Shown here one piece after another: positions 3,436 to 62,998 of a stretch of 64,000 bases of DNA. Origin of the DNA: Lachnospiraceae bacterium (GTDB lineage: Bacteria > Bacillota > Clostridia > Lachnospirales > Lachnospiraceae); the NCBI GenBank assembly GCA_017623675.1, contig JAGAOO010000006.1, positions 16,355 through 80,354 on the forward strand, written 5' to 3'. Position numbers and translations under genes: made by a program. The stretch's first letter is position 1, and every line of letters begins with the position of its first letter. The notes beneath the pieces are model-generated. The model was given only the letters and a program-made list of their open reading frames with translations, searched no databases and was not told the DNA's origin.

Positions 3436-4674
3436 TTATGAACGGTAATCTGCATTAATTTTTACATAATCATAGGTTAAATCGCAGCCCCATGCTGTAG
3501 CTGTTGCCTCGCCACCATTCACGTCCGCTGTAACAATAACTTTTTGGGGCGACAAAATCTTGGTTGCAAGTTCTTCATCATAATCGGTTGCCATTCCACC
3601 TTCCACAAGAGTTAAGGTTCCTACCTCACTGGAAATTTGAATTTTCACCTGATTAGGGTCAAATTCCGCTCCGGAATATCCCATTGCACACAGGATTCTG
3701 CCCCAGTTAGCATCTGTTCCAAATACTGCTGCTTTCGTCAAATTAGAAGTAATAATAGACTTTGCCAGTATCTTTGCCTGCTTTTTGTCGGACGCATGAA
3801 TTACCGTTGCCTCCAGTAAACGAGTGGCTCCTTCTCCATCTGCCGCTATATTTTGTGCCAAAAATGTCATAACCTGCTTCAATGCAGTTCGGAATACTTC
3901 AAAATCTCCATCCTCTGTTGTTAAAATATCATTTTCTGCTAATCCATTTGCCATCAGAATCACAGTATCATTCGTAGACGTATCTCCATCTACCGATACC
4001 ATATTAAAGGTATCTTCTACGAATTCCTTTAAGCTGGCTTTTAAAAGCTCCTTTGAAATCATAACATCTGTTGTAATTACGGAAAGCATGGTTCCCATAT
4101 TGGGATGAATCATACCAGAGCCCTTACAAATACCTGCAATTCTTGCTGTCTTACCCTTGATTTGGAATTCTAAAGCAATTTCCTTCGGATGGGTATCTGT
4201 TGTCATAATCGCTTCTGCAGCGTCATGAGCAGCCTGTTCTTCGGAGCTTAAGGCTCCCCGTAACGCTTTGACACCTTTTAACAATACCTCCATTGGCAAT
4301 GGCTGTCCGATGACACCTGTTGACATTACCATGACCTGCTCTGGTTGAATTGCTAACTCTGCTGCAACTGCTTCTGCTGTCTTTTTCACATTTTCATATC
4401 CGTCGGAACCGGTACACGCATTTGCAATACCACTGTTCACTACCACTGCCTGTGCAACGCCATACTCCTCTAACATCTTAGCATCCCACTGTACCGGAGC
4501 CGCTTTTACCAGATTCCGCGTAAATACCCCTGCTGCTGCACAAGGTACTTCACTGACAATCATTGCCATATCTTTATTGGTTTTCCCCGGCTTAATACCA
4601 GCCCGTAAGCCGGCCGCCTGAAACCCCTTCGGTGCGGTAATACCACCGTTGATTATTGTAATTGATTCACTCAT
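3436..4674 (-). CDS. argJ: Bifunctional ornithine acetyltransferase / N-acetylglutamate synthase
   Basis: 412 aa with ArgJ-type N-terminus ...GGITAPKGFQAAG... and the autoprocessing region HPNMGTMLSVITTD. Confidence 0.9.
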   Translation of the reverse strand: MSESITIINGGITAPKGFQAAGLRAGIKPGKTNKDMAMIVSEVPCAAAGVFTRNLVKAAPVQWDAKMLEEYGVAQAVVVNSGIANACTGSDGYENVKKTAEAVAAELAIQPEQVMVMSTGVIGQPLPMEVLLKGVKALRGALSSEEQAAHDAAEAIMTTDTHPKEIALEFQIKGKTARIAGICKGSGMIHPNMGTMLSVITTDVMISKELLKASLKEFVEDTFNMVSVDGDTSTNDTVILMANGLAENDILTTEDGDFEVFRTALKQVMTFLAQNIAADGEGATRLLEATVIHASDKKQAKILAKSIITSNLTKAAVFGTDANWGRILCAMGYSGAEFDPNQVKIQISSEVGTLTLVEGGMATDYDEELATKILSPQKVIVTADVNGGEATATAWGCDLTYDYVKINADYRS

Positions 4675-4703: not shown

Positions 4704-5284
4704 ATTAAATTAAGGTTTAGCGCAATACCTGCGACCGCGGTTTTGTGGATATATATTCCCGCACGACACGCTTGCGCTCCAGCCAGCACGTAACGGTACG
4801 TAAGGCTGTGCATCACAATTATTATGTTCTCTCCTCACAAAGCACAGCCTAAGTACCGACGTGCTTCTAAGGTCGTTGCGGAAACATATACCCTCAAAAC
4901 CGCTGCTGTAGGAATGGACAAACCTATAATTTATATTGGGGAAAGTAGTATGGCTCCGCGAGGATTAAACGTTACCACAAACGTTATTGTTTACGTAATT
5001 ATACGCATTGTCAACATTATGGTATCATTGTTTTCGTATGCATTGATACCTTACGCGGAGCAGTACTTTGCTTCCTATATAAATTATGGGTCATTTCGTA
5101 CAGTTGGCTACCGGTTTCTGGTGATAGATAGTTGCAAGCAGACCTTAAAAGCACGTTGGTGCTTAGGTGCGGTGTTGTCGCACCTTATGCACCATTACGT
5201 GCTGACCGGAGCGCAAGCGTGTCTGCGGTAACTATCTGTCATCAGAAACCGATAAAGCGACTAAACCAACAAACCATAATTTAT
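4704..5284 (+). ncRNA. Large structured non-coding element, copy 1 (unclassified; candidate ornate ncRNA or structured MITE)
   Basis: Second copy at 38439-38991 (reverse-complemented). Nested long helices: 4923-4941/5072-5090, 5113-5133/5230-5250, 4765-4780/5208-5223. G-T wobble positions occur only on the + strand. Compensatory substitutions separate the two copies. The overlapping ORF is not conserved in copy 2. Confidence 0.65.
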
Positions 5285-5365
5285 TGCATTCTCCTCTCAA
5301 TAGCGATACAATAGAGCCAGTGTGACAGTCTATGACTGCAAGTATTAAAAATAAGGAGATTACAT

Positions 5366-6553
5366 ATGTTATCACAACACTATATTGATATGACTTCTCA
5401 AAAGTCAGCGATTCGTGAACTTTTTGATTATGGCTCCAAGCGGGCACAGGAAATCGGTTATGAAAATGTATTTGATTACAGCTTAGGTAATCCAAGTGTA
5501 CCGACTCCACAGGCATTTACCGATGCTTTGTTAGATTTAATTCAGAACACAGACCCGGTAAAGCTTCATGGCTACAGCCCAAGCCTTGGTATTCCTTCCG
5601 TTCGTCAGGCAGTTGCAGATTCCCTGAACCAACGGTTCGATATGAATTTTAAAATGGAAGATATCTTCATGGCAGTGGGTGCCGCCGGTGCCATTGCACA
5701 TGCGGTTCGTGCAGTGACTGTACCGGGGGACGAGGTCATTACCTTCGCTCCATTTTTCCCGGAATATTATCACTATGTTAATCAGACCGGTGCTGTTCTA
5801 AAGGTGGTTCCTGCTGACATTACCAGCTTCCAGATTAACTTCGAGGCCTTTGAAGAAATGATTACACCAAAGACCATGGCAGTCTTAATCAACACACCGA
5901 ATAACCCGTCCGGCATTGTGTATTCCACCGCCACCATTGATAAGCTGGCAGCTATTTTAACCGCAAAATCAAAAGAATACGGTCATGAGATTTACATTAT
6001 TTCCGATGAACCTTATCGTGAAATTGTTTTTGCCGGTGTAGATGCACCATTTGTTGCCAAGCACTATGACAACACGATTATCTGCTATTCCTTCAGCAAG
6101 TCCATCTCCCTCCCCGGAGAACGTATTGGCTATGTTGCCGTTAATCCAGCCTGCAAGGATGCTGCATTAATAGTAGACATGTGCGGACAGATTTCCAGAG
6201 GAATCGGGCACAATTGTCCACCTTCTCTGATTCAGCTTGCCGTAGCAAGAGTATTGGATATGACCTCTGATATTTCTGTATATGAGACAAATAAGAACAT
6301 TCTTTATCGGGAATTAACCCGAATTGGTTTCGAGATTGTAGAACCGGGCGGAACCTTCTATATGTTCCCGAAGGCATTGGAAAAAAATGCGGCTGCCTTC
6401 TGTGAACGGGCAAAGCAGCATGATTTGTTACTGGTTCCGAGTGACTCTTTCGGATGTCCGGGACATTTCCGCATCTGCTATTGTATTCCTACAGAAAAGG
6501 TAGAGCGTTCCATTCCGGTATTCGAAGCATTGGCAAAGGAATATTTGGGATAA
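5366..6553 (+). CDS. Class I/II pyridoxal-phosphate-dependent aminotransferase (aspartate/aromatic type)
   Basis: 395 aa with NTPNNPSG and the PLP-lysine motif SFSKSISLPGERIGY. SD AAGGAGA upstream. Confidence 0.8.
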   Translation: MLSQHYIDMTSQKSAIRELFDYGSKRAQEIGYENVFDYSLGNPSVPTPQAFTDALLDLIQNTDPVKLHGYSPSLGIPSVRQAVADSLNQRFDMNFKMEDIFMAVGAAGAIAHAVRAVTVPGDEVITFAPFFPEYYHYVNQTGAVLKVVPADITSFQINFEAFEEMITPKTMAVLINTPNNPSGIVYSTATIDKLAAILTAKSKEYGHEIYIISDEPYREIVFAGVDAPFVAKHYDNTIICYSFSKSISLPGERIGYVAVNPACKDAALIVDMCGQISRGIGHNCPPSLIQLAVARVLDMTSDISVYETNKNILYRELTRIGFEIVEPGGTFYMFPKALEKNAAAFCERAKQHDLLLVPSDSFGCPGHFRICYCIPTEKVERSIPVFEALAKEYLG

Positions 6554-6560
6554 ATGCACT

Positions 6561-6771
6561 CCTTTGTGGCTCCTCGAGCCATGCCATCTCGTCTCGGCTC
6601 TGCCTCGACTCGATGTAGGGCTGTCGCCCTATAAGTAGATACGAGCCATGCTTCAGCTCGATTCCGCTTCGCTCCATCTCGCTGACGGGCTGTCGCCCCT
6701 TTGTGGCTCCTCGAGCCATGCCATCTCGTCTCGGCTCTGCCTCGACTCGATGTAGGGCTGTCGCCCTATAA
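6561..6771 (-). repeat. Tandem intergenic repeat array (3 units of about 65-74 nt; same family as 28050-28239, opposite orientation)
   Basis: 6561-6634 and 6698-6771 are identical (74 nt). The 63 nt between them is a diverged copy sharing GAGCCATGC...GGGCTGTCGCCC. The reverse complement matches the GGGCGACAGCC...GCATGGCT unit of the PFL-locus array. Confidence 0.85.
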
Positions 6772-6838
6772 AAATGGAAAGAACTGCATCGCCATGAGAG
6801 CAATTCTGTTCTCTGACGATGCAGTTCTTTCCATTTTT
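6770..6838. terminator. Bidirectional intrinsic terminator between convergent genes
   Basis: AAAAATGGAAAGAACTGCATCG ... CGATGCAGTTCTTTCCATTTTT is a perfect 22-nt inverted repeat with an A-run and a T-run. Confidence 0.75.
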
Positions 6839-6846
6839 GCATGGCT

Positions 6847-7488
6847 CTATAGTTTCATGTATCCATAGCTATTAACAATAGCATCCAGTTTTTGTCCTGC
6901 TTTGCAGTATGGGCATTCGGTATGGGAATAGGTCTGATATTCCGGGAAATCACTCATCTTAAATATGGAATGAATGGTGTGACCGCTAATTTCATCTGCT
7001 GCTGAGAACAGAGATGATACACCGGCTACACTGCCACCATAGTATTCAATGCATTCCAACGCCCGCTCAATGGTACGTCCGGTAGTCGCAGTTGCCAACA
7101 ACAACAATACATGCTTATCCCTAATCATAGGCTGTAAATTGTCACGGAATACCAACTGTCCCATTGAATTCATTTCCGGTGAAATTACATATATTGTCTG
7201 ATGGGAATTCATAGACATAAAGCCTGCTGCCGATAGTTCTTCGGCCAAATATGCACCAATCACTTCTGTTCCGTCCATACATACAATGGTATCCACAACC
7301 GTGCTATTTACATATTCATGTACAATGGACTTTGCTGCAGCAAGTGCCATACTCTGTCTGGTCTTTAATGTAGTCATATCCATATAGTAATTAATATGGG
7401 AATGGTTCGTAGCAAAATGTCCCGGTATAATTTTTACGGACAAAAAATTGTTATATTGGGAATATACTTTCATTGCTCTATCTTCCAT
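6847..7488 (-). CDS. Phosphoribosyltransferase-domain protein (PRTase family, function unclear)
   Basis: Start moved to the ATG at 7488 (SD AAGGAGG). PRPP-loop-like VLLLLATATTGRT. C-terminal CPYC. Confidence 0.5.
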   Translation of the reverse strand: MEDRAMKVYSQYNNFLSVKIIPGHFATNHSHINYYMDMTTLKTRQSMALAAAKSIVHEYVNSTVVDTIVCMDGTEVIGAYLAEELSAAGFMSMNSHQTIYVISPEMNSMGQLVFRDNLQPMIRDKHVLLLLATATTGRTIERALECIEYYGGSVAGVSSLFSAADEISGHTIHSIFKMSDFPEYQTYSHTECPYCKAGQKLDAIVNSYGYMKL

Positions 7489-7647
7489 AATATCCTCCTT
7501 AGCTGACAGCAGTAAAATCATGCTGTTCTATATTAAGATATGCTTATTTTAACTTTTTTTTCTTTCTTTGTAAAGCATAATACAGATTGACAGCTTTCGC
7601 CATTTTCTCCTATAATTAGATTAAGATTTTACATAAGAGGGATAAAC

Positions 7648-34934: not shown

Positions 34935-35822
34935 TTAATAATTTTTTTGCTTTACACAAATGATGACTGCCATAATAATCATTGGAATCATGCTGATAAT
35001 ACCAATATATGCCGGCCCAAGAATTGCCTTATCTGCATACTCGGGTTTAGAAAGATAAGCAAATATGGTAAATGCATTGGTTGCACCATGCATCAGTGAC
35101 GGAAGCCAGATGGTTTCTGTCTTTTCATACACATAATCAAACAAAATACCCATCATAACGGTACAGATACAGAATACAATCGGTCCGAGTACCGGTGCAC
35201 CAATATATTCTTTCCCATACTCATAGCCGGCAAAAATCATAACCGGCCAGTGCCAAGCCCCCCAGATTGCACCACCCACGATACGTCCCTTGGTGACACC
35301 AAGTTTCTCTTTAAGATATGGATACAAAGCACCTCTCCAACCGACCTCTTCACCTAACGCAATAAACATATTAATAAATGGTACATATGTAACCGCCTGA
35401 ATTGCAGAAATCAATAGATACATTGGAACCGTTAAGCCTTGTGCTTCTAACTGCTCAAGTGCGCCAGCCTCTTCTAAAAGTCCATGCAAAGTCAAAAATT
35501 CAGAATCAAACGCATCCGGGAAAATTGCAAAAAACAAAACACCACCAACAATGCTTAATAATGCAGGAACCCAAAGTGCAAAGAAAACATATCTAATTCT
35601 CCCTTTCAAATGCGGAACCCATCCCATGCCTTTTAGTGATATTCTTGCTATGAGCACTCCCAGGAAAGGCATATACATCGCAATCATTAAAATAACTTGA
35701 AATACCATTTGATTTCCTTTGTTGCTATAAATGCTTGCAATCATTTCCAAAATCCAGGCCAGGCCAAATGCCACTATCATATATATCGTAAATTGCTTTT
35801 TACTAATTATATTTTTTTCCAT
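34935..35822 (-). CDS. CPBP-family intramembrane glutamic endopeptidase (CAAX protease/Abi-like)
   Basis: Polytopic. Motifs EEVGWRG, FxxxH-like AWHW and HGATN. Confidence 0.8.
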   Translation of the reverse strand: MEKNIISKKQFTIYMIVAFGLAWILEMIASIYSNKGNQMVFQVILMIAMYMPFLGVLIARISLKGMGWVPHLKGRIRYVFFALWVPALLSIVGGVLFFAIFPDAFDSEFLTLHGLLEEAGALEQLEAQGLTVPMYLLISAIQAVTYVPFINMFIALGEEVGWRGALYPYLKEKLGVTKGRIVGGAIWGAWHWPVMIFAGYEYGKEYIGAPVLGPIVFCICTVMMGILFDYVYEKTETIWLPSLMHGATNAFTIFAYLSKPEYADKAILGPAYIGIISMIPMIIMAVIICVKQKNY

Positions 35823-36550
35823 TATGAATTAACCCCTTTTCTATATACTTCAAGACTCCATATTCTTCTCTTACAACTAGGACAAGTTAACTTTCTCATT
35901 TTTGGAGTATGATTTCCAAATACTGCTTCCATTTTCTTAGGCCGAAACCTGGTATGGCATTCAGGACAAATATACTCTATCTGTTTATACCAATAGTCAA
36001 ACATAAAAATAAGACAAATACTAACCACAGCCAAAGCTACAAAAAATGGTATCCATATTCCTTTTAGTATACCGATAACAAAAGTCACAATTTCTACAGT
36101 TTCTAGCGGAATTGCGATTACCACTATCTTTTTATACATTTTCTTTAATTTATCTTTTTCTTCCATAACCTGCGATATGTCATGAATTGTTTTTTGCGTT
36201 CCGTCCTTGAAAGAAGATAAGGCACTTCTTATACTTTTTATTTTTTCTAATTGTTCCGTTTTTCTCTTAACATCTTCCTGAATATTTTTCTCTTGTTCAT
36301 CAAGCAAAAGTTCAATTACTTTTTTTGACTCATCGGATTCCAATAATTCAGCAATATCTTTAATGGAGATATCCAAGTCTCTTAAAAAACAAATTGTTTC
36401 CAATGTAACAACATCATCTTCAGAGAAAAGTCTTCTTCCTCCCTCTGTCAAATCCGTTGGAACAAGAATTCCTCTTTCATCATAGTACTGAACAGTTCTT
36501 ACTGAAACACCACACTTCTTTGCAAGTTCTCCGGTTGTGTATAATGACAT
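35822..36550 (-). CDS. Membrane-anchored MerR-type regulator with C-terminal zinc ribbon
   Basis: Start at 36550 (SD AAGGAGG). HTH YTTGELAKKCGVSVRTVQYYDERGIL, a coiled region, 2 TM helices, then CPEC...CPSC. Its stop overlaps the CPBP start (TAATG). Confidence 0.7.
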   Translation of the reverse strand: MSLYTTGELAKKCGVSVRTVQYYDERGILVPTDLTEGGRRLFSEDDVVTLETICFLRDLDISIKDIAELLESDESKKVIELLLDEQEKNIQEDVKRKTEQLEKIKSIRSALSSFKDGTQKTIHDISQVMEEKDKLKKMYKKIVVIAIPLETVEIVTFVIGILKGIWIPFFVALAVVSICLIFMFDYWYKQIEYICPECHTRFRPKKMEAVFGNHTPKMRKLTCPSCKRRIWSLEVYRKGVNS

Positions 36551-36679
36551 ATCTCTGCCTCCTTTCAAAGGCTATATTAGTATATAACGCAGCGTGACAA
36601 GCAATATATCACGCTGCGTTATTTTTAGAATATATTATCGACCTTATCCCATTAAACTGGAATTTTCATAAATTGTTTA

Positions 36680-37321
36680 TTATATCAGATTCAACCAATA
36701 CAACACATAAGAAAGCAATATAAATAATGCAGGAATAGCTATCAGCAACAATATCCCAATTAAATGATTCTTTCTTTCAGTTCTCGATGCTGTCAATCCA
36801 TATGGCTCTTTCCACAAATGTGTGATGGTCAAAAAGATGTATATAGCCCAATATGTACATGAGGGAATTGCAGCGTATCCTGTCCATTCTGAATCAGTTA
36901 ATACAGTTCCTCTTTCAAATAATAAAAAGCTTACAATTGAAATAATGGGACAAATATAATGTAACAACAAATTGGCTTTCTTGGGTTCTAATCCTCCAAA
37001 CAAATCTGTATGAGATTTACTTTTTCCGGATTTGAACCTTGGTGCTAAAAAAAAGGCAAAAACAAACATAGTAGCCGCAAGACCACACGTTGCCGTATAT
37101 CGTAATCCTTTAATTAATTCAGGAACATTACCATATCCCAATAATTCTATAATAGCAAAACCACAGAATAAAATGCTTATAGCAAGAGCAATAAAATTCT
37201 GAAGAAAAGTATAGAACTTCAATATATTTAACTTGTTCTTTACTTTTAGAAAGGTTGCACCTTCTATTATAATAAGTAAAAAGTTAAACATTAAAGCCAT
37301 AATTAATTGAACTGTTCTCAT
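36680..37321 (-). CDS. Hypothetical polytopic membrane protein
   Basis: About 6 hydrophobic helices, AT-rich codon usage, SD GGAAGGA upstream of the ATG at 37321. Confidence 0.5.
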   Translation of the reverse strand: MRTVQLIMALMFNFLLIIIEGATFLKVKNKLNILKFYTFLQNFIALAISILFCGFAIIELLGYGNVPELIKGLRYTATCGLAATMFVFAFFLAPRFKSGKSKSHTDLFGGLEPKKANLLLHYICPIISIVSFLLFERGTVLTDSEWTGYAAIPSCTYWAIYIFLTITHLWKEPYGLTASRTERKNHLIGILLLIAIPALFILLSYVLYWLNLI

Positions 37322-37419
37322 ATATCTATCCTTCCGCAAATTCCTATTTTTCTCTACTCAACCACCTCGCCAAATTGGAAGTTGTCTATTTCTTGCAAAT
37401 CAATTAAATATCAATTTTT

Positions 37420-37683
37420 TTAATTATTCTTTTTAATTTCTTCTATCAATTCATAGCAAAACTTTTTCCATTTATCCATGTCATCATCACTTGGGAACCA
37501 TATTCTCCCACCTACGCTAAATTCTATAGATGAAGCGTCTAATGACTCAAAATATACTCGTGGTTCATATGGATGCCCCGACATACGATACTTAAAATTC
37601 TTTCCATCTATGATAGTTTCAAAAACGCCAAAGTGTTCTAAATTATAAAATTTGCATATACTATCTTGATATTTAATATCCAT
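37420..37683 (-). CDS. Hypothetical small cytoplasmic protein
   Basis: 87-aa ORF with no recognisable motif, in an AT-rich islet. Confidence 0.4.
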   Translation of the reverse strand: MDIKYQDSICKFYNLEHFGVFETIIDGKNFKYRMSGHPYEPRVYFESLDASSIEFSVGGRIWFPSDDDMDKWKKFCYELIEEIKKNN

Positions 37684-37814
37684 AACATTACCACCTTATT
37701 AATATGTAAATTGGAATTTGACACTTCACAACTTCGTACCTAAGTTTCATTTTAATAATTTATAGCATTTATTAATTCCAATAACGACTCCTGTCCATCA
37801 TCCGAACCAAGCAA

Positions 37815-38384
37815 CTAATAAGAATCACAATACTCATCATTAACTGCTTTTACTTCAAGAAATGGTTCCACTGTTAAGCCATTTATCAGCATTCTATATA
37901 ATTCACTTCGTTCTTTTGTAAATCCATGTTCTTGAGCAAATCTACCAAATACCTCTTCGTGTTCACTCTGCTCAGTTTCATCCATACTATCAAGAAAATC
38001 TTTCTCGGTTTTCAAAATACTTACATCACAGTAATCAGAAACATACTTTCCAAACGCTATTATATTCATAAAATCGTCAATGCATTTTGCTACTATTCCA
38101 CATTCACCTTCGGTACCTATATATCCAATCATTTCATCATTTATAACTACCCATAAAGCTCCCGATCCATCTCTTGCAAAAGGTTTCCTATCACTATAAC
38201 TTGAAATACCTGGCCCCATAAGATCTTCCAACCAATTGTCATCATCTTCAAGATCTTTTACCCAATTTTCATCATATATTTCAACATCACAATCATAAAA
38301 AGCATCTAATAATTCATTATCATCAGTTATTTCTTCCATATACTTTTTAAGTTTATCAGGTAAACTTGTATTATCAAATTTCAT
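37815..38384 (-). CDS. Hypothetical acidic protein, possibly SMI1/KNR4 (SUKH)-like immunity-type fold
   Basis: 189 aa, very acidic. The ...RDGSGALWVVINDEMIGY... segment resembles SUKH family cores as I recall them (weak). Confidence 0.35.
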   Translation of the reverse strand: MKFDNTSLPDKLKKYMEEITDDNELLDAFYDCDVEIYDENWVKDLEDDDNWLEDLMGPGISSYSDRKPFARDGSGALWVVINDEMIGYIGTEGECGIVAKCIDDFMNIIAFGKYVSDYCDVSILKTEKDFLDSMDETEQSEHEEVFGRFAQEHGFTKERSELYRMLINGLTVEPFLEVKAVNDEYCDSY

Positions 38385-38438: not shown

Positions 38439-38991
38439 ATAAATTATGGTTTAACGTACCAAGTCGCCTTATCGGTTTCTGATGACAGATAGTTACCGCA
38501 GACACGCTTGCGCTCCGATCAGCACGTAATGGTACATAAGGCTGTAAAATACACAGCCTAAGTACCAACGTGCTTTTAAGGTCTGCTTGCAACTATCTAT
38601 CACCAGAAACCGGTAGCCAACTGTACGAAATAACCCATAATTTATATGGGGAGCAAAGTACCGCTCCGCGCAAGGTATCAATGCCTACGAAAGCAATGAT
38701 ACCTTAATACTGACAATGCGTATAATTACGTAAACAATAACGTTTGTGGTAACGTTTAATCCTCGCGGAGCCATACTACTCTCTCCAATATAAATTATGG
38801 GTTTTACCAGAGTAGATGTTCGGCGGATGAATATATATGCTTGAATGCAGACTCTAAAAGTACGTCGGTACTTGGATTGCATCTTTTGCAATCCTATGTA
38901 CCGTTACGTACTGACCGAAGTGCAAACGTGTCTGCATCAAGTATATATATTCGAAGCCGAACGCTAGTCAGTACGATAAACCATAATTTAT
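38439..38991 (-). ncRNA. Large structured non-coding element, copy 2 (reverse orientation)
   Basis: Collinear with the reverse complement of 4704-5284. Core is near-identical. Arm hairpins carry compensating changes. Wobble positions are G-U only on the minus strand. The track ORFs here are interrupted relative to copy 1. Confidence 0.65.
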
Positions 38992-38992
38992 C

Positions 38993-40342
38993 TCACGACC
39001 TTCTACTCTTCTCCAAATTCACGAACTTTGTATACTCTCCCTGCCAACCCAGCATCACAGTGCCGGTAGCACCATTTCTCTGCTTGGCAATGATGATTTC
39101 CGCCTTATTCTTATCCTCTTCCGGCAAATCATCCCGATATTTATCTTCTCTGTAAATGAACATAACAACGTCTGCATCCTGCTCGATAGAACCGGATTCA
39201 CGCAGGTCCGAAAGCATTGGTCGGTGATCGGTTCTGGCTTCTACTGCACGGCTTAACTGAGAAAGTGCAATAATCGGCACATCTAATTCCTTTGCCAGCA
39301 CTTTAAGCCCTCTGGAGATTTCCGAAACCTCCTGCTGACGGGAATCACTTCTTCCACTTCCACTCATCAACTGTAAGTAGTCAATGATGATTAAGCCTAC
39401 ATTATGACGTTGCTTTAATTTTCTACATTTATTCCGAATATCTCCAATGGTTACATTGGACTGGTCTTCAATAAATAATTTCGTTCCACCGATGATATTG
39501 GAGCTCTCATACAGCTTCATCCACTGGTCATCCTGTAAATTACCGGTACGAATATTCTGGGAATTTACCTGTGACTCCATGGCAATCATACGCTGTACTA
39601 ACTGCTCCTTATTCATTTCGAAATTGAAAATAGCAACAGGGACATCCGTTTTCAGAATAACATATTCTGCAATATTCAATACAAATGCAGTTTTACCCAT
39701 TGCCGGTCTGGCTGCCACCAGAATCAATTCGGAACCATGCAGTCCGGTCAGCATATCATCTAAGTCCATGAAACCTGTTGGAACACCGGTAATATTTCCC
39801 TGCTGTTTGGATGCCTCTCGAATGTTACGAAGAACATTGTCTACCACTTCCCGAATAGGAACAATATCATCGCCGGCATTTCCCTGCTGGGTCAGTTCTA
39901 ATACTTCATTTTCAATGTTACTGAGTATGTTGGTGGATGTATCTTTCAGAGAATAACAATCATTGGCAGCGGTTTCCGCCAACTTAATCACCCGCCGCAT
40001 ATTGGCACGGTCTTTTACGATACCGGCATATTTTTTGGCATTTGCCGAAGTGGGCACCACGCTCATTAATTCCTGCATGGTTTCAATGCCATAGACATTT
40101 TCCGGCACACCTTTTTCCTTTAACCGTTCCATTAAGGTAATCAAATCAATGGCAGTTCCTTCATGATACAACTCTACCATTGCTTCAAATATCGCACCAT
40201 ACTGAGGCTGATAGAAATCCTCTTTTGTCAACATATCTGCTACATTGACAACTGCTTCCCGGCTCATCAGCATAGATGCAAGCACTGCCTGCTCTGATTC
40301 CACACTATTCGGTTGTGTCTTACGGATTACTGCTTCTTCCAT
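38993..40342 (-). CDS. dnaB: Replicative DNA helicase
   Basis: 449 aa; Walker A ARPAMGKTAF; conserved rplI-dnaB synteny. Confidence 0.95.
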   Translation of the reverse strand: MEEAVIRKTQPNSVESEQAVLASMLMSREAVVNVADMLTKEDFYQPQYGAIFEAMVELYHEGTAIDLITLMERLKEKGVPENVYGIETMQELMSVVPTSANAKKYAGIVKDRANMRRVIKLAETAANDCYSLKDTSTNILSNIENEVLELTQQGNAGDDIVPIREVVDNVLRNIREASKQQGNITGVPTGFMDLDDMLTGLHGSELILVAARPAMGKTAFVLNIAEYVILKTDVPVAIFNFEMNKEQLVQRMIAMESQVNSQNIRTGNLQDDQWMKLYESSNIIGGTKLFIEDQSNVTIGDIRNKCRKLKQRHNVGLIIIDYLQLMSGSGRSDSRQQEVSEISRGLKVLAKELDVPIIALSQLSRAVEARTDHRPMLSDLRESGSIEQDADVVMFIYREDKYRDDLPEEDKNKAEIIIAKQRNGATGTVMLGWQGEYTKFVNLEKSRRS

Positions 40343-61930: not shown

Positions 61931-62998
61931 ATGAAACGAATTATCCTTACCGGTGGCGGAACTGCCGGACATGTTACTCCGAATATTGCATTAATCCCTT
62001 ATTTACAGGAAGCCGGATATGATATTCACTATATTGGCTCCTATACCGGCATTGAAAAGAAATTAATTGAAGATATGAAGATTCCTTATCATGGAATCTC
62101 CTCCGGTAAACTACGGCGATACTTTGATGTAAAGAATTTTTCCGATCCCTTTCGTGTTATAAAAGGATATGGCGAAGCCTCCCGTCTGATTAAAAGCCTG
62201 AAACCGGATGTGGTATTCAGTAAGGGTGGATTTGTCTCTGTTCCTGTTGTTATGGCAGCAAAGAATCATAAGGTACCTGCTATTATTCACGAATCAGATA
62301 TGACACCGGGACTTGCCAATAAGTTGTGTATACCATGTGCTGCCAAAATATGCTGCAATTTCCCTGAAGCTATGGAGCATTTACCAAAAGACAAGGCGGT
62401 ATTAACCGGCACACCTATCCGACAGGAATTATTCAAAGGCGACCCGGTTGAGGCAGTTCAATTTACCGGACTGGATGCCAATAAACCGACCATACTGGTA
62501 GTTGGCGGCAGTACCGGAAGCGTAAAGGTGAATGAAGCAGTTCGAGGCTGTTTAGACGAGCTGTTACAGACCTATCAGGTTATTCATTTATGTGGAAAAG
62601 ATAAAGTTGATTCTGAATATGAAAATCGTGCCGGATATGTACAGTATGAGTACATTAAAAAGGAACTAAGTTCTTTACTGGCATTTGCAGATATTGTAAT
62701 TTCCAGAGCCGGTGCCAATGCTATCTGTGAACTGCAGGCTTTGGCAAAACCGAATATCCTGATTCCTCTTGGTTCTAATGCCAGCCGGGGCGACCAGATT
62801 CTTAACGCCGAATCCTTTGAAAAACAAGGCTTCAGTTATGTTCTTATGGAGGAAAACCTTTCGAAGGAAGCTTTGTTAGAAGCTGTCAACTATGTGTATG
62901 AGCATCGCAGTGAATATAAAAAGACCATGGAAGCCAGCCAGATGACCAATGCCATTGAAAAAATAATGAAATTGATTAATCGAGCTGCAAATCAATAA
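61931..62998 (+). CDS. murG: Undecaprenyldiphospho-muramoylpentapeptide beta-N-acetylglucosaminyltransferase
   Basis: LTGGGTAGHVTPN, ...ISRAGANAICE...; 355 aa. Confidence 0.92.
   Translation: MKRIILTGGGTAGHVTPNIALIPYLQEAGYDIHYIGSYTGIEKKLIEDMKIPYHGISSGKLRRYFDVKNFSDPFRVIKGYGEASRLIKSLKPDVVFSKGGFVSVPVVMAAKNHKVPAIIHESDMTPGLANKLCIPCAAKICCNFPEAMEHLPKDKAVLTGTPIRQELFKGDPVEAVQFTGLDANKPTILVVGGSTGSVKVNEAVRGCLDELLQTYQVIHLCGKDKVDSEYENRAGYVQYEYIKKELSSLLAFADIVISRAGANAICELQALAKPNILIPLGSNASRGDQILNAESFEKQGFSYVLMEENLSKEALLEAVNYVYEHRSEYKKTMEASQMTNAIEKIMKLINRAANQ

Follow-up and report, generated by a model that had tools for sequence, protein, structure and literature searches.

Is a long, highly structured non-coding sequence that recurs in a bacterial chromosome the gene of one large RNA, or a repeat that spreads and recombines as DNA? 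The question arises in a 64-kb window (the whole stretch of Lachnospiraceae DNA analysed here), in which a sequence-only reading had placed two copies of such a sequence, at 4704-5284 and, reverse-complemented, at 38439-38991, and had taken the first for one + strand RNA of about 580 nt akin to the ornate ncRNA classes. Using nhmmer and a motif search, we recovered two copies in the window, at 4706-5283 (+) and 38440-38990 (-), shifting the earlier ends by at most 2 nt. The repeat is 551-578 bp long, within the span of about 50-600 bp typical of MITEs, and non-coding, and each copy consists of three hairpins, designated arm A, core and arm B. Averaged over columns, the copies are 86% identical; core and right arm reach about 97%, whereas the left arm has strongly diverged. 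Copy 1, with an alpha-type arm A and a gamma-type arm B, is flanked by argJ (3436-4674, - strand; assigned by its ArgJ domain) and an aminotransferase gene (5366-6553, + strand; Aminotran_1_2). Copy 2, which has a beta-type arm A and a gamma-type arm B and is oriented as the - strand of the window, begins 2 nt past the dnaB stop codon (38993-38995), and 55 nt separate its other end from the start of a 189-aa ORF (37815-38384, - strand). A Pfam scan of the 50 window ORFs describes the surroundings as housekeeping chromosome, and on that ground a prophage or ICE setting was rejected.

The 135-aa ORF that spans arm A, core and arm B of copy 1 (4824-5231, + strand) is spurious, as had been proposed. 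It is split in copy 2, reading frames vary among copies, and a comparison with 1.84 billion representative proteins yields just 6 weak relatives, all of them translations of other copies of the element. No ORF is conserved between the copies, a property shared with MITEs. Searching Rfam 15 with both copies and an insert-bearing copy gave no match at the gathering score, and at E <= 10 or 5 returned nothing but miRNA-model noise on simple hairpins; ROOL, GOLLD, OLE, HEARO and raiA were among the models that failed to match, as the sequence-only reading had surmised. A single ncRNA would therefore have to represent a new class. We found no similar DNA in phage and plasmid records (blastn, distant mode), no match or chance matches only in IMG/VR, and none in JGI metagenomes by pattern or by back-translated ORF. 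An exact-pattern search of genome contigs with a core 18-mer gave 6 chance matches (Paenibacillus, Rothia, Phycisphaerales) that share just 18-20 nt. A retron, group II intron, IStron or TnpB/IscB guide RNA was rejected as well, given the lack of an adjacent RT, TnpB or IscB gene, the lack of an Rfam match and boundaries of another kind.

To describe the fold we treat the hairpins separately. In copy 1, arm A (4706-4933; nhmmer E = 2e-51) is a hairpin of about 228 nt with a three-way junction, the core (4921-5091) is a hairpin of about 170 nt with a closing stem of about 40 bp, placed on the + strand by profile match and strand energies, and arm B (5080-5283; E = 3e-55) is a hairpin of about 204 nt and an inverted homologue of arm A. 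The corresponding parts of copy 2 are arm A at 38791-38990 (E = 3e-56), the core at 38632-38803 (- strand; E = 2.6e-61) and arm B at 38440-38644 (E = 1e-60). Arms A and B present the same unit of about 200 nt in opposite orientation, and all arms align as a single family once arm A is reverse-complemented. Across this family the unit measures about 200-230 nt and retains a three-way junction and a 2x3 internal loop. The side branch of the junction is a mini-hairpin, GC-GCAA-GC at 5211-5218 on the + strand (arm alignment columns 164-171), whose loop is GCAA or GGAA, that is GNRA, in all arm types and whose closing pair covaries; in some copies a 90-nt insert takes its place.

Pairing in the arms is strongly conserved. 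It is kept in 97.1% of alignment cells compared with 25-42% when partners are slid, and both-sided change is seen in 23 of 50 pairs compared with 1-3 under the same sliding, counts that rest on only three well-sampled arm types and therefore on few independent events. The compensating changes that had been noticed between the arms of the two copies thus hold and extend to the whole arm family, and the view of the element as non-coding, highly structured and maintained by compensatory change is confirmed. Paired changes could also arise without selection, by gene conversion between copies or by template-switch correction within palindromes. Neither process explains the G:U bias described below. 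In the core stem, none of the 43 pairs showed both-sided covariation.

The strand on which each hairpin is best preserved bears most directly on the idea of one large RNA. Folding energies are very low for both copies (-239 and -254 kcal/mol for copies 1 and 2, z = -11.6 and -19.3 against shuffles). This favours an RNA gene, yet copy 1 folds equally well on its two strands (-239.3 compared with -238.4 kcal/mol); in copy 2 the strands are 13 kcal/mol apart. Individually, 12 of 12 arms are more stable on the strand that reads outward from the core, with RNA and DNA parameters alike: -98.3 outward compared with -87.0 inward for arm A of copy 1, -95.9 compared with -85.6 for its arm B, and -89.6 compared with -78.1 and -103.5 compared with -82.8 for arms A and B of copy 2. 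The conserved strand of arm A in copy 1 is accordingly the - strand, directed towards argJ, and that of arm B the + strand, directed towards the aminotransferase gene; in copy 2 the conserved strands are window + for arm A, towards dnaB, and window - for arm B, towards the 189-aa ORF. The arm alignment contains about 10 columns with G:U compared with 1 with A:C. Strand-specific G:T pairs had been reported for the + strand of copy 1 as a whole. This is right for arm B and for the core, which has 8 G:U columns compared with 1 A:C and is 2-9 kcal/mol more stable on the + strand in 9 of 9 copies, but it is reversed for arm A, where the - strand is more stable by 5-12 kcal/mol and the + strand has A:C where the - strand has G:U. 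Because the G:U-bearing arm strand runs outward on both sides, the + strand carries arm A in antisense. As the arms are inverted copies with opposite preferred strands, no one transcript has both in conserved form; arm A prefers -, core and arm B prefer +, and neither strand carries the conserved structure from end to end.

The long helices named for copy 1 tell a similar story. All of the inverted repeats are present, but the 16/16-bp helix of 4765-4780 with 5208-5223, which would tie arm A to arm B, is not conserved as a pairing. Two other copies (L020 and L027) show 3 mismatches over its 16 positions, and in a third (L023) the 90-nt insert interrupts it; the two stretches are complementary because the arms are inverted versions of each other. 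We rejected this helix for want of covariation; the conserved fold is three local hairpins.

A single structured ncRNA gene of a new class, about 550-580 nt long on the + strand of copy 1, or in reduced form about 365 nt comprising core plus arm B, is consistent with the folding energy, the covariation, the + strand G:U bias of core and arm B, the fact that these two parts are the best conserved between copies, and the fixed sides taken by alpha arms (left of the core) and gamma arms (right). Against it stand the opposite polarity of arm A, the long near-perfect helices with a core stem lacking covariation, an arm-to-arm helix that is not maintained, modules that are swapped, deleted, inserted or solitary, occurrence in many copies with terminal inverted motifs, and the lack of any conserved promoter or terminator at the element borders in either copy scanned. 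The comparison with the ornate classes is therefore not supported: opposite arm polarity, modularity, dispersal and breakpoints all speak against one + strand RNA of about 580 nt. A shorter + strand RNA made of core plus arm B is conceivable. We consider the single large ncRNA unlikely, and of all the readings weighed here we give it the lowest probability.

If the arms are read outward, the core might be their promoter. The core interior is dispensable, with 71 nt deleted in L016 and L017 and 41 nt in L019, the latter deletion falling between direct repeats. In this interior, four direct repeats of the form ACGTWA/ACGCAT occupy 4969-5008 (starts 4969, 4981, 4993 and 5003; spacing 12, 12 and 10 nt), a possible protein-binding array, and the frequency of ACGT in the element is about 12-fold that found elsewhere in the window. 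The same interior holds a promoter-like site, TTGACA-17-AACAAT (4986-5014, - strand), which matches the consensus at 10 of 12 positions and is aimed at arm A and argJ; its counterpart in copy 2 is CTGACA-17-AACAAT. An alternative reading follows from these features, in which cis-acting RNA modules travel on a mobile promoter cassette: one or more core promoters would drive outward transcription, and each arm hairpin would serve as a 5' leader that stabilises or regulates the neighbouring mRNA, an arrangement compatible with DNA mobility that places the selected function in the RNA. The maintenance of pairing on the outward-reading strand in both arms fits this proposal, as does the side branch, where the loop on that strand remains GNRA and its closing pair covaries. 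At four junctions (argJ, L016 right, L019 left and L020 right) the element ends 20-32 nt before a start codon, leaving no space for a separate promoter, and 8 of 12 distinct flanking genes are directed away from the element. At the other 4 of the 12 junctions, however, the gene reads into the element, and the 8:4 split is not significant; the solo arm in L048 is antisense to both its neighbours. The promoter-like site is a single weak one on one strand, the count of consensus matches (5, compared with 2.3 +/- 1.7) does not exceed that of shuffles, and the site lies in the part of the core that is deleted in L016, L017 and L019, so these variants lack it. A promoter-consensus scan of the element gave no convincing rightward promoter. 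An outward promoter starting from the CATAAT of the terminal motif was rejected, as inspection by eye and the promoter scan found no -35 at usable spacing in any arm type. We therefore regard the promoter-cassette proposal as rather unlikely.

The borders of the hairpins point to a different kind of unit. Arm A, core and arm B are all bounded by the motif TAAATTATGGKTT / AAMCCATAATTTA, so that each element has four motif copies in alternating orientation. With up to 1 mismatch the motif occurs at 7 sites in the window compared with 0.18 expected by chance, all within the two copies, and an eighth site, at 4706, has 2 mismatches. Motif and inverted-repeat searches place the four sites of copy 1 at its left end (M', TAAATTAAGGTTTA, 4706-4719), at the arm A/core border (M, AACCTATAATTTAT, 4921-4934), at the core/arm B border (M', ATAAATTATGGGTC, 5079-5092) and at its right end (M, AAACCATAATTTAT, 5271-5284). 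The outer pair forms terminal inverted repeats of 13 nt, TAAATTAWGGTTT / AAACCATAATTTA, that are 92-100% complementary, as in MITEs. Each arm likewise ends in a terminal inverted motif of 13-14 nt, TA-AATTATGGKTT...AAMCCATAATT-TA. All junctions read have a TA flanking AATTATGG...CCATAATT at either end, which may be a target-site duplication or simply belong to the motif itself. Since all borders share the inverted motif, any inverted pair of motifs could delimit a unit, whether one arm by itself, the core alone or the full composite. Two other assignments were rejected. The stretch CTTCCTA...ATTATG, which we take to resemble the Bacillus dif site, has a spacing 3 nt too short for a dif/Xer site and differs in copy 2 when inspected by eye, and a DnaA box in the alpha arm, ATATCCACA, is not conserved in L019.

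Copies at other loci show that the modules are indeed exchanged. Through their spurious ORFs we reached further copies on related metagenome contigs (L016-L020), and at least six other flanks carry the element (L016-L020, L023, L027 and L048) besides the two in the window; several copies are known solely as contigs of 593-735 nt. Among the alpha, beta and gamma arm types, the combinations seen are alpha/gamma', beta/gamma' and alpha/beta'. A solo alpha arm stands between dnaB and an HD-domain gene (L048 and L049), and the 90-nt insert occurs in both arms of L017 and in arms of L018 and L023. The order argJ-(alpha/core/gamma')-aminotransferase in the window compares with argC-(beta/core/alpha')-argJ in L027 and infB-(beta/core/gamma')-aminotransferase in L023, and strain-to-strain rearrangements have their breakpoints within it. 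The same dnaB flank adjoins four or more different arms: with DnaB 100% identical, this flank is joined to a beta, an inverted gamma, a delta or an epsilon arm, the sequences diverging right after the motif. In 6 of 9 places, dnaB-bearing contigs end 28-30 nt (about k-1) inside the element.

The alternating motifs and the alternative dnaB junctions also raise the possibility of an inversion or shuffling switch, inverton- or shufflon-like, in which a recombinase acting at the four motifs would flip the core, a single arm or the entire element and thereby alter expression of the neighbours. One 14-nt motif repeated four times in alternating orientation is what such a switch would use, elements lie just upstream of genes, the core has its promoter-like site, and the dnaB flank in L004 and L009 runs into the opposite end of the element in reverse complement, the outcome expected of whole-element inversion. 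Only 28 nt of that junction are known, so that an arm swap and an inversion cannot be told apart there. The orientation of the core relative to the alpha and gamma arms is nevertheless constant in 4 of 4 alpha..gamma' composites (copy 1, L016, L017 and L019), the 50 window ORFs include no recombinase, and inversion leaves both the dispersal to many loci and the full-length covariation of the arms unexplained. A switch is thus improbable, little more credible than the single RNA.

The element belongs to a narrow lineage. In 20 sister-species loci with DnaB 91-94% identical it is not found after dnaB, and profiles of arm and core had no match in 126 kb of sister-species loci; these dnaB flanks are too diverged to align for an empty-site comparison, and no empty site turned up in a sufficiently close relative. 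The family is restricted to a lineage of gut Lachnospiraceae.

Together, our results indicate that this is probably a multi-copy, non-coding interspersed repeat, a miniature composite mobile or recombining element that acts at the DNA level, and not one large RNA gene. It is best read as a new family of modular palindromic repeats resembling MITEs, BIMEs and REPINs. The repeat is dispersed to many intergenic sites, exchanges and loses modules, joins different arms precisely to one flank and breaks within itself in rearrangements, and its structure is conserved with a strand bias. The hallmarks of a MITE- or REP-type repeat, a class that the sequence-only reading had named as its own refutation, are present, and no known IS or MITE matched. 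In the mechanism that we propose, two arms in inverted orientation flank a core of about 170 nt as motif-closed units, much as IS ends flank a composite transposon or REP units a BIME or REPIN, and an enzyme encoded elsewhere in the genome would act on the motif-closed hairpins. A Pfam scan of the 50 window ORFs and the gene tables of the fetched loci show no transposase or recombinase, and the 64 kb of the window hold just two copies; both points count against this reading. The arm hairpin would form in single-stranded nucleic acid on the outward-reading strand, either as ssDNA while the element is mobilised, in the manner of REP/RAYT or IS200/IS605, or as RNA when transcription continues through the arm into the adjacent gene, for which Correia and ERIC hairpins offer a parallel; we consider the two versions about equally likely. 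Several features sit poorly with a classical DDE-mobilised MITE and are more typical of functional RNAs, namely the full-length covariation, the three-way junction, the GNRA-type loop and the expansion segment at a hairpin tip. The arm may even be, although we hold this only tentatively and think it the less likely case, a new class of structure- and strand-specific single-stranded element: a large folded-ssDNA substrate with attC/REP-like logic, three-way junction and internal loop that is moved by an enzyme, or a mobile RNA leader transcribed outward from a portable promoter core.

Should the repeat-family reading be correct, a candidate new giant ncRNA is struck off, and the gain is a well-delimited new repeat family from an under-studied lineage of gut Firmicutes, unusual among MITE- and REP-type repeats in its arm size (200 nt with a three-way junction), its strength of covariation and its single-strand polarity. 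The element would then drive strain-level genome rearrangement and break short-read assemblies, would offer a concrete way to track down the enzyme acting on motif-closed hairpins, and would allow a test of ssDNA compared with RNA selection, a question still open for REP, ERIC, BOX and Correia. For annotation of MAGs, the spurious ORFs and contig breaks of the element should be masked. If the RNA-leader version were instead to hold, gut Lachnospiraceae would carry in this composite a bidirectional expression cassette that spreads itself and rewires the genes beside it.

Among known systems, ROOL, GOLLD, OLE, HEARO and raiA resemble the element in total size (about 550-650 nt), in being non-coding with covariation-supported helices, and in their occurrence in Firmicutes and in gut and rumen samples. 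The element differs from these large ornate ncRNAs in its two-fold symmetry, opposite arm polarity, near-perfect long helices, multiple copies and separable modules. Integron attC sites are imperfect palindromes with conserved ends, a variable paired interior and certain bases that are conserved as unpaired, and it is one strand of defined polarity, in folded form, that is recognised; the arm likewise has conserved ends and a variable yet paired interior. Whereas attC sites measure 57-141 nt, carry RYYYAAC/GTTRRRY boxes and stand in direct orientation in cassette arrays next to intI, the present units exceed 200 nt, end in TAAATTATGG / CCATAATTTA and are inverted, and the 50 window ORFs include no integrase.

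Closer parallels are found among small interspersed repeats. Like BOX, RUP and SPRITE, the element is an intergenic repeat of Firmicutes, and its module content varies, as in the pneumococcal BOX, which combines varying numbers of A, B and C boxes (PMC3049150). The modules of these families are 45-107 nt long and share no sequence similarity with it. RUP has terminal repeats like those of IS630-Spn1, which is believed to move it in trans (PMC3049150), whereas for the present element there is no known IS whose ends match. Correia and ERIC elements are small non-autonomous repeats beside genes, with terminal inverted repeats, a central protein-binding site and transcribed, RNase III-processed hairpins that modulate neighbours (PMC2649163; reviewed in PMC2229807), and for Correia elements promoter creation, IHF binding and cleavage by RNase III are all described (PMC2649163). 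The present element similarly has TA at every module border, a position 20-80 nt upstream of start codons and a repeat array in its core. It departs from Correia (of Neisseria) and ERIC in having no sequence similarity to them, a 3-5 times larger size, three separable hairpins and covarying pairing over whole arms.

The nearest likeness is to REP, BIME and REPIN, which are also palindromic non-coding units dispersed between genes as inverted pairs around a linker; here the two arms flank the core. REP units are about 20-40 nt long and have a conserved GTAG-type 5' tetranucleotide. The present units differ in being 200-230 nt long with a three-way junction rather than short palindromes, and in having a 13-14-nt motif as conserved ends in place of a GTAG-type tetranucleotide. 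The host is a Lachnospiraceae species, and unlike in REP/RAYT systems, where the repeats flank a Y1 (HUH) transposase gene present in single copy, no RAYT gene is present in the window or the fetched loci. REPIN hairpins show compensatory changes (PMC3116915), and the REP/REPIN hairpin that these changes preserve belongs to a unit thought to act as single-stranded DNA (PMC3116915; PMC8266576). Like REPINs, the elements described here are inverted doublets whose hairpins are kept by compensatory changes, with the pairing lying within each arm instead of between the two.

Pairwise comparison confirmed that the same sequence of about 550–580 nt occurs twice in the window, at 4706–5283 on the + strand (copy 1) and at 38440–38990 in reverse orientation (copy 2), as the sequence-only reading had noted. 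The core and right arm are around 97% identical between the copies, and the left arm has diverged strongly while retaining self-complementarity. Relative to dinucleotide shuffles, both copies fold stably (copy 1, −239.3 kcal/mol, z = −11.6; copy 2, −254.4 kcal/mol, z = −19.3), with the opposite strands nearly equal (−238.4 and −241.4 kcal/mol, respectively). The 135-aa open reading frame (ORF) of copy 1, previously judged to be non-coding, is interrupted in copy 2, and its relatives in two large protein libraries are only translations of other copies, with varying frames and lengths. Searching the element against Rfam 15, a step proposed with the original observation, returned no matching family at gathering score, nor any at E ≤ 10.

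Each copy contains four sites of a 14-nt motif, ATAAATTATGGKTT, in alternating orientations. With at most one mismatch, seven sites were found, all within the two copies (0.18 expected by chance); the eighth, at 4706, has two mismatches. These sites set the limits of three hairpins per copy, which in copy 1 are arm A (4706–4933), the core (4921–5091) and arm B (5080–5283). Inverted-repeat comparison identified arm A as an inverted homologue of arm B, and all arms could be aligned once each was written from its core-proximal to its outer end. Read in this direction, an arm starts with a closing stem in which the two motif sites pair, followed by a hypervariable basal stem and then a three-way junction; a mini-hairpin, its loop GCAA or GGAA, forms the side branch of this junction. 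Beyond it come a conserved 2×3 internal loop (CUUAGG/CCUUAYG) and an apical stem, the tip of which varies. In related metagenome loci (L017:388–474, L018:142–234 and L023:1259–1351), on two different arm types, this GNRA mini-hairpin is replaced by an optional insert of about 90 nt that forms additional hairpins, two CACGAAGTG mini-hairpins among them. A TTGCAT-17-TACAAT sequence (5284–5312) adjoins the right end of copy 1 and is upstream of the aminotransferase gene; its first T doubles as the final base of the terminal motif. Its −35 matches at just three of six positions, and the promoter scan did not list it.

A consensus fold of 50 pairs was built from 11 distinct arms, which fall into three types (alpha, beta and gamma). 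In this fold 97.1% of cells are paired, compared with 25–42% when partners were slid by 1–3 columns. Both sides change at 23 of the 50 pairs, bearing out the compensating changes first seen between the two copies, versus 1–3 in the slid controls, and no shuffle matched the covariation score. One-sided changes in the arms gave G:U at around ten columns and A:C at one (two-sided binomial p ~0.01, our own estimate), although sampling just three arm types limits the independence of these events. The strand reading outward from the core was more stable in 12 of 12 arms, by 1–21 kcal/mol with RNA parameters and 2–9 kcal/mol with DNA parameters, and the 'sense' of arm B therefore lies on the + strand and that of arm A on the − strand. 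None of the 43 core pairs showed both-sided covariation, because core conservation is too high; on the + strand the core has eight G:U columns versus one A:C and is more stable by 2–9 kcal/mol in every copy. The reported + strand G:U bias is thus real for the core and arm B but reversed in arm A. The 16/16-bp helix proposed to pair the arms (4765–4780 with 5208–5223) is not conserved, having three mismatches in L020 and L027 and being split by the insert in L023. A single large non-coding RNA, as proposed from copy 1, fails because no one strand carries conserved structure throughout; a shorter + strand RNA of core plus arm B is possible. The feature that the sequence-only reading described is real and largely as observed, whereas its interpretation largely does not hold.

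At the DNA level, the phage, plasmid, IMG/VR, JGI metagenome and GTDB-representative collections yielded no genuine relatives; additional copies were retrieved using the spurious 135-aa ORF as a protein query. Two of these loci (L016 and L019) have alpha, a deleted core and gamma′ (the prime denoting an inverted arm right of the core), L020 has alpha, core and beta′, L017 carries the 90-nt insert in both arms, and L018 comes from a Lachnospiraceae MAG. More strains were retrieved via the window's flanking proteins. The window has argJ–(alpha, core, gamma′)–aminotransferase at 4706–5283, L027 has argC–(beta, core, alpha′)–argJ (element at 891–1469) and L023 has infB–(beta, core, gamma′ with insert)–aminotransferase (element at 779–1418). 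Within the same species, the neighbour of argJ across the element is argC or the aminotransferase gene, and that of the aminotransferase gene is infB or argJ, depending on the strain. Chromosomal rearrangements with breakpoints within the element thus distinguish the strains.

After a 100% identical DnaB, one flank joins four different arms (beta, inverted gamma, delta and epsilon), with divergence starting directly past the motif. Where DnaB is 98% identical, a solo alpha arm lies between dnaB and an HD-domain gene. Sister species with 91–94% identical DnaB (including Clostridium sp. CAG:632) have no element after dnaB, and arm and core profiles detected neither module in 20 sister-species loci of 6.3 kb. 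Delta and epsilon, from other samples (L002:5351–5429 and L007:1838–1893), are a second, diverged arm family at the same dnaB flank and have ...TGAGCCATG... in common; their known stretch is just 56–79 nt, and the arm profile misses them. Six of nine dnaB contigs stop 28–30 nt inside the element, which, judging from the assembler's likely behaviour, would be expected of a multi-copy repeat in k = 31 assemblies.

The window is otherwise ordinary chromosome (arg genes, ATP synthase, PFL, two-component systems, ABC transporters and similar), and a Pfam scan of 50 ORFs in it found no transposase, recombinase or reverse transcriptase. Relative to L028–L047, it has extra genes between dnaB and the MerR/OTCase genes (34935–38384): three ORFs (189, 87 and 219 aa) that match no Pfam family, plus genes for a MerR-DUF2207 protein and an Rce1-like protease. 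None of these is present in sister species, where a single 239–242-aa gene takes their place. Two neighbouring ORFs of 117 and 224 aa (6489–7521, − strand) also have no Pfam match. The window's sole Rfam match at gathering score, S414 (Staphylococcus sRNA 414; 62453–62627, − strand; 48.2 bits, cut-off 45), is antisense within a MurG-like ORF (61931–62998, + strand) and is probably conserved coding sequence, not an sRNA gene.

Our results favour a DNA repeat of the MITE/BIME/REPIN kind that is dispersed, modular and recombinogenic, because terminal inverted motifs bound every module, the modules are separable, different arms join one flank precisely, many intergenic sites are occupied in one lineage, and internal deletions, inserts and assembly breaks occur. 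Because a unit can be delimited by any two inverted motifs, the composite resembles a miniature composite transposon with a 170-nt cargo between two inverted arms. It is distinguished by clear selection on its arms for pairing on one strand, which implies that they act in single-stranded form; the data fit ssDNA and RNA alike. As ssDNA, the arms would act in the way proposed for REPINs, in which compensatory changes are likewise common (PMC3116915). As RNA, they would resemble Correia and ERIC elements, in which hairpins are transcribed and processed and change expression of neighbouring genes (PMC2649163, PMC2229807). The GNRA-type loop plus expansion segment at the arm side branch, and element ends just 20–32 nt upstream of four start codons, lean towards RNA. 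Leaning towards DNA are the arm swaps at motif junctions, a 12-fold enrichment of ACGT in the element and, within the core, four phased ACGTWA repeats that resemble protein-binding sites. ACGT occurs 8–9 times per element versus 0.68 times per 581 nt elsewhere in the window, and TACGTA and AACGTT, with two each per element, are almost absent elsewhere; this bias could reflect host restriction–modification avoidance, a foreign origin of the element or protein-binding sites.

The element behaves like REP/BIME/REPIN, Correia, ERIC and BOX/RUP repeats but belongs to none of them: it lacks sequence similarity to these families, its units are five-fold larger, its architecture is unlike theirs and it has no known cognate enzyme. 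It also falls outside every Rfam family. Bacterial interspersed palindromic repeats are a known kind, of which this element, with its unusually large, covarying and strand-polar hairpin modules, is a new variant.
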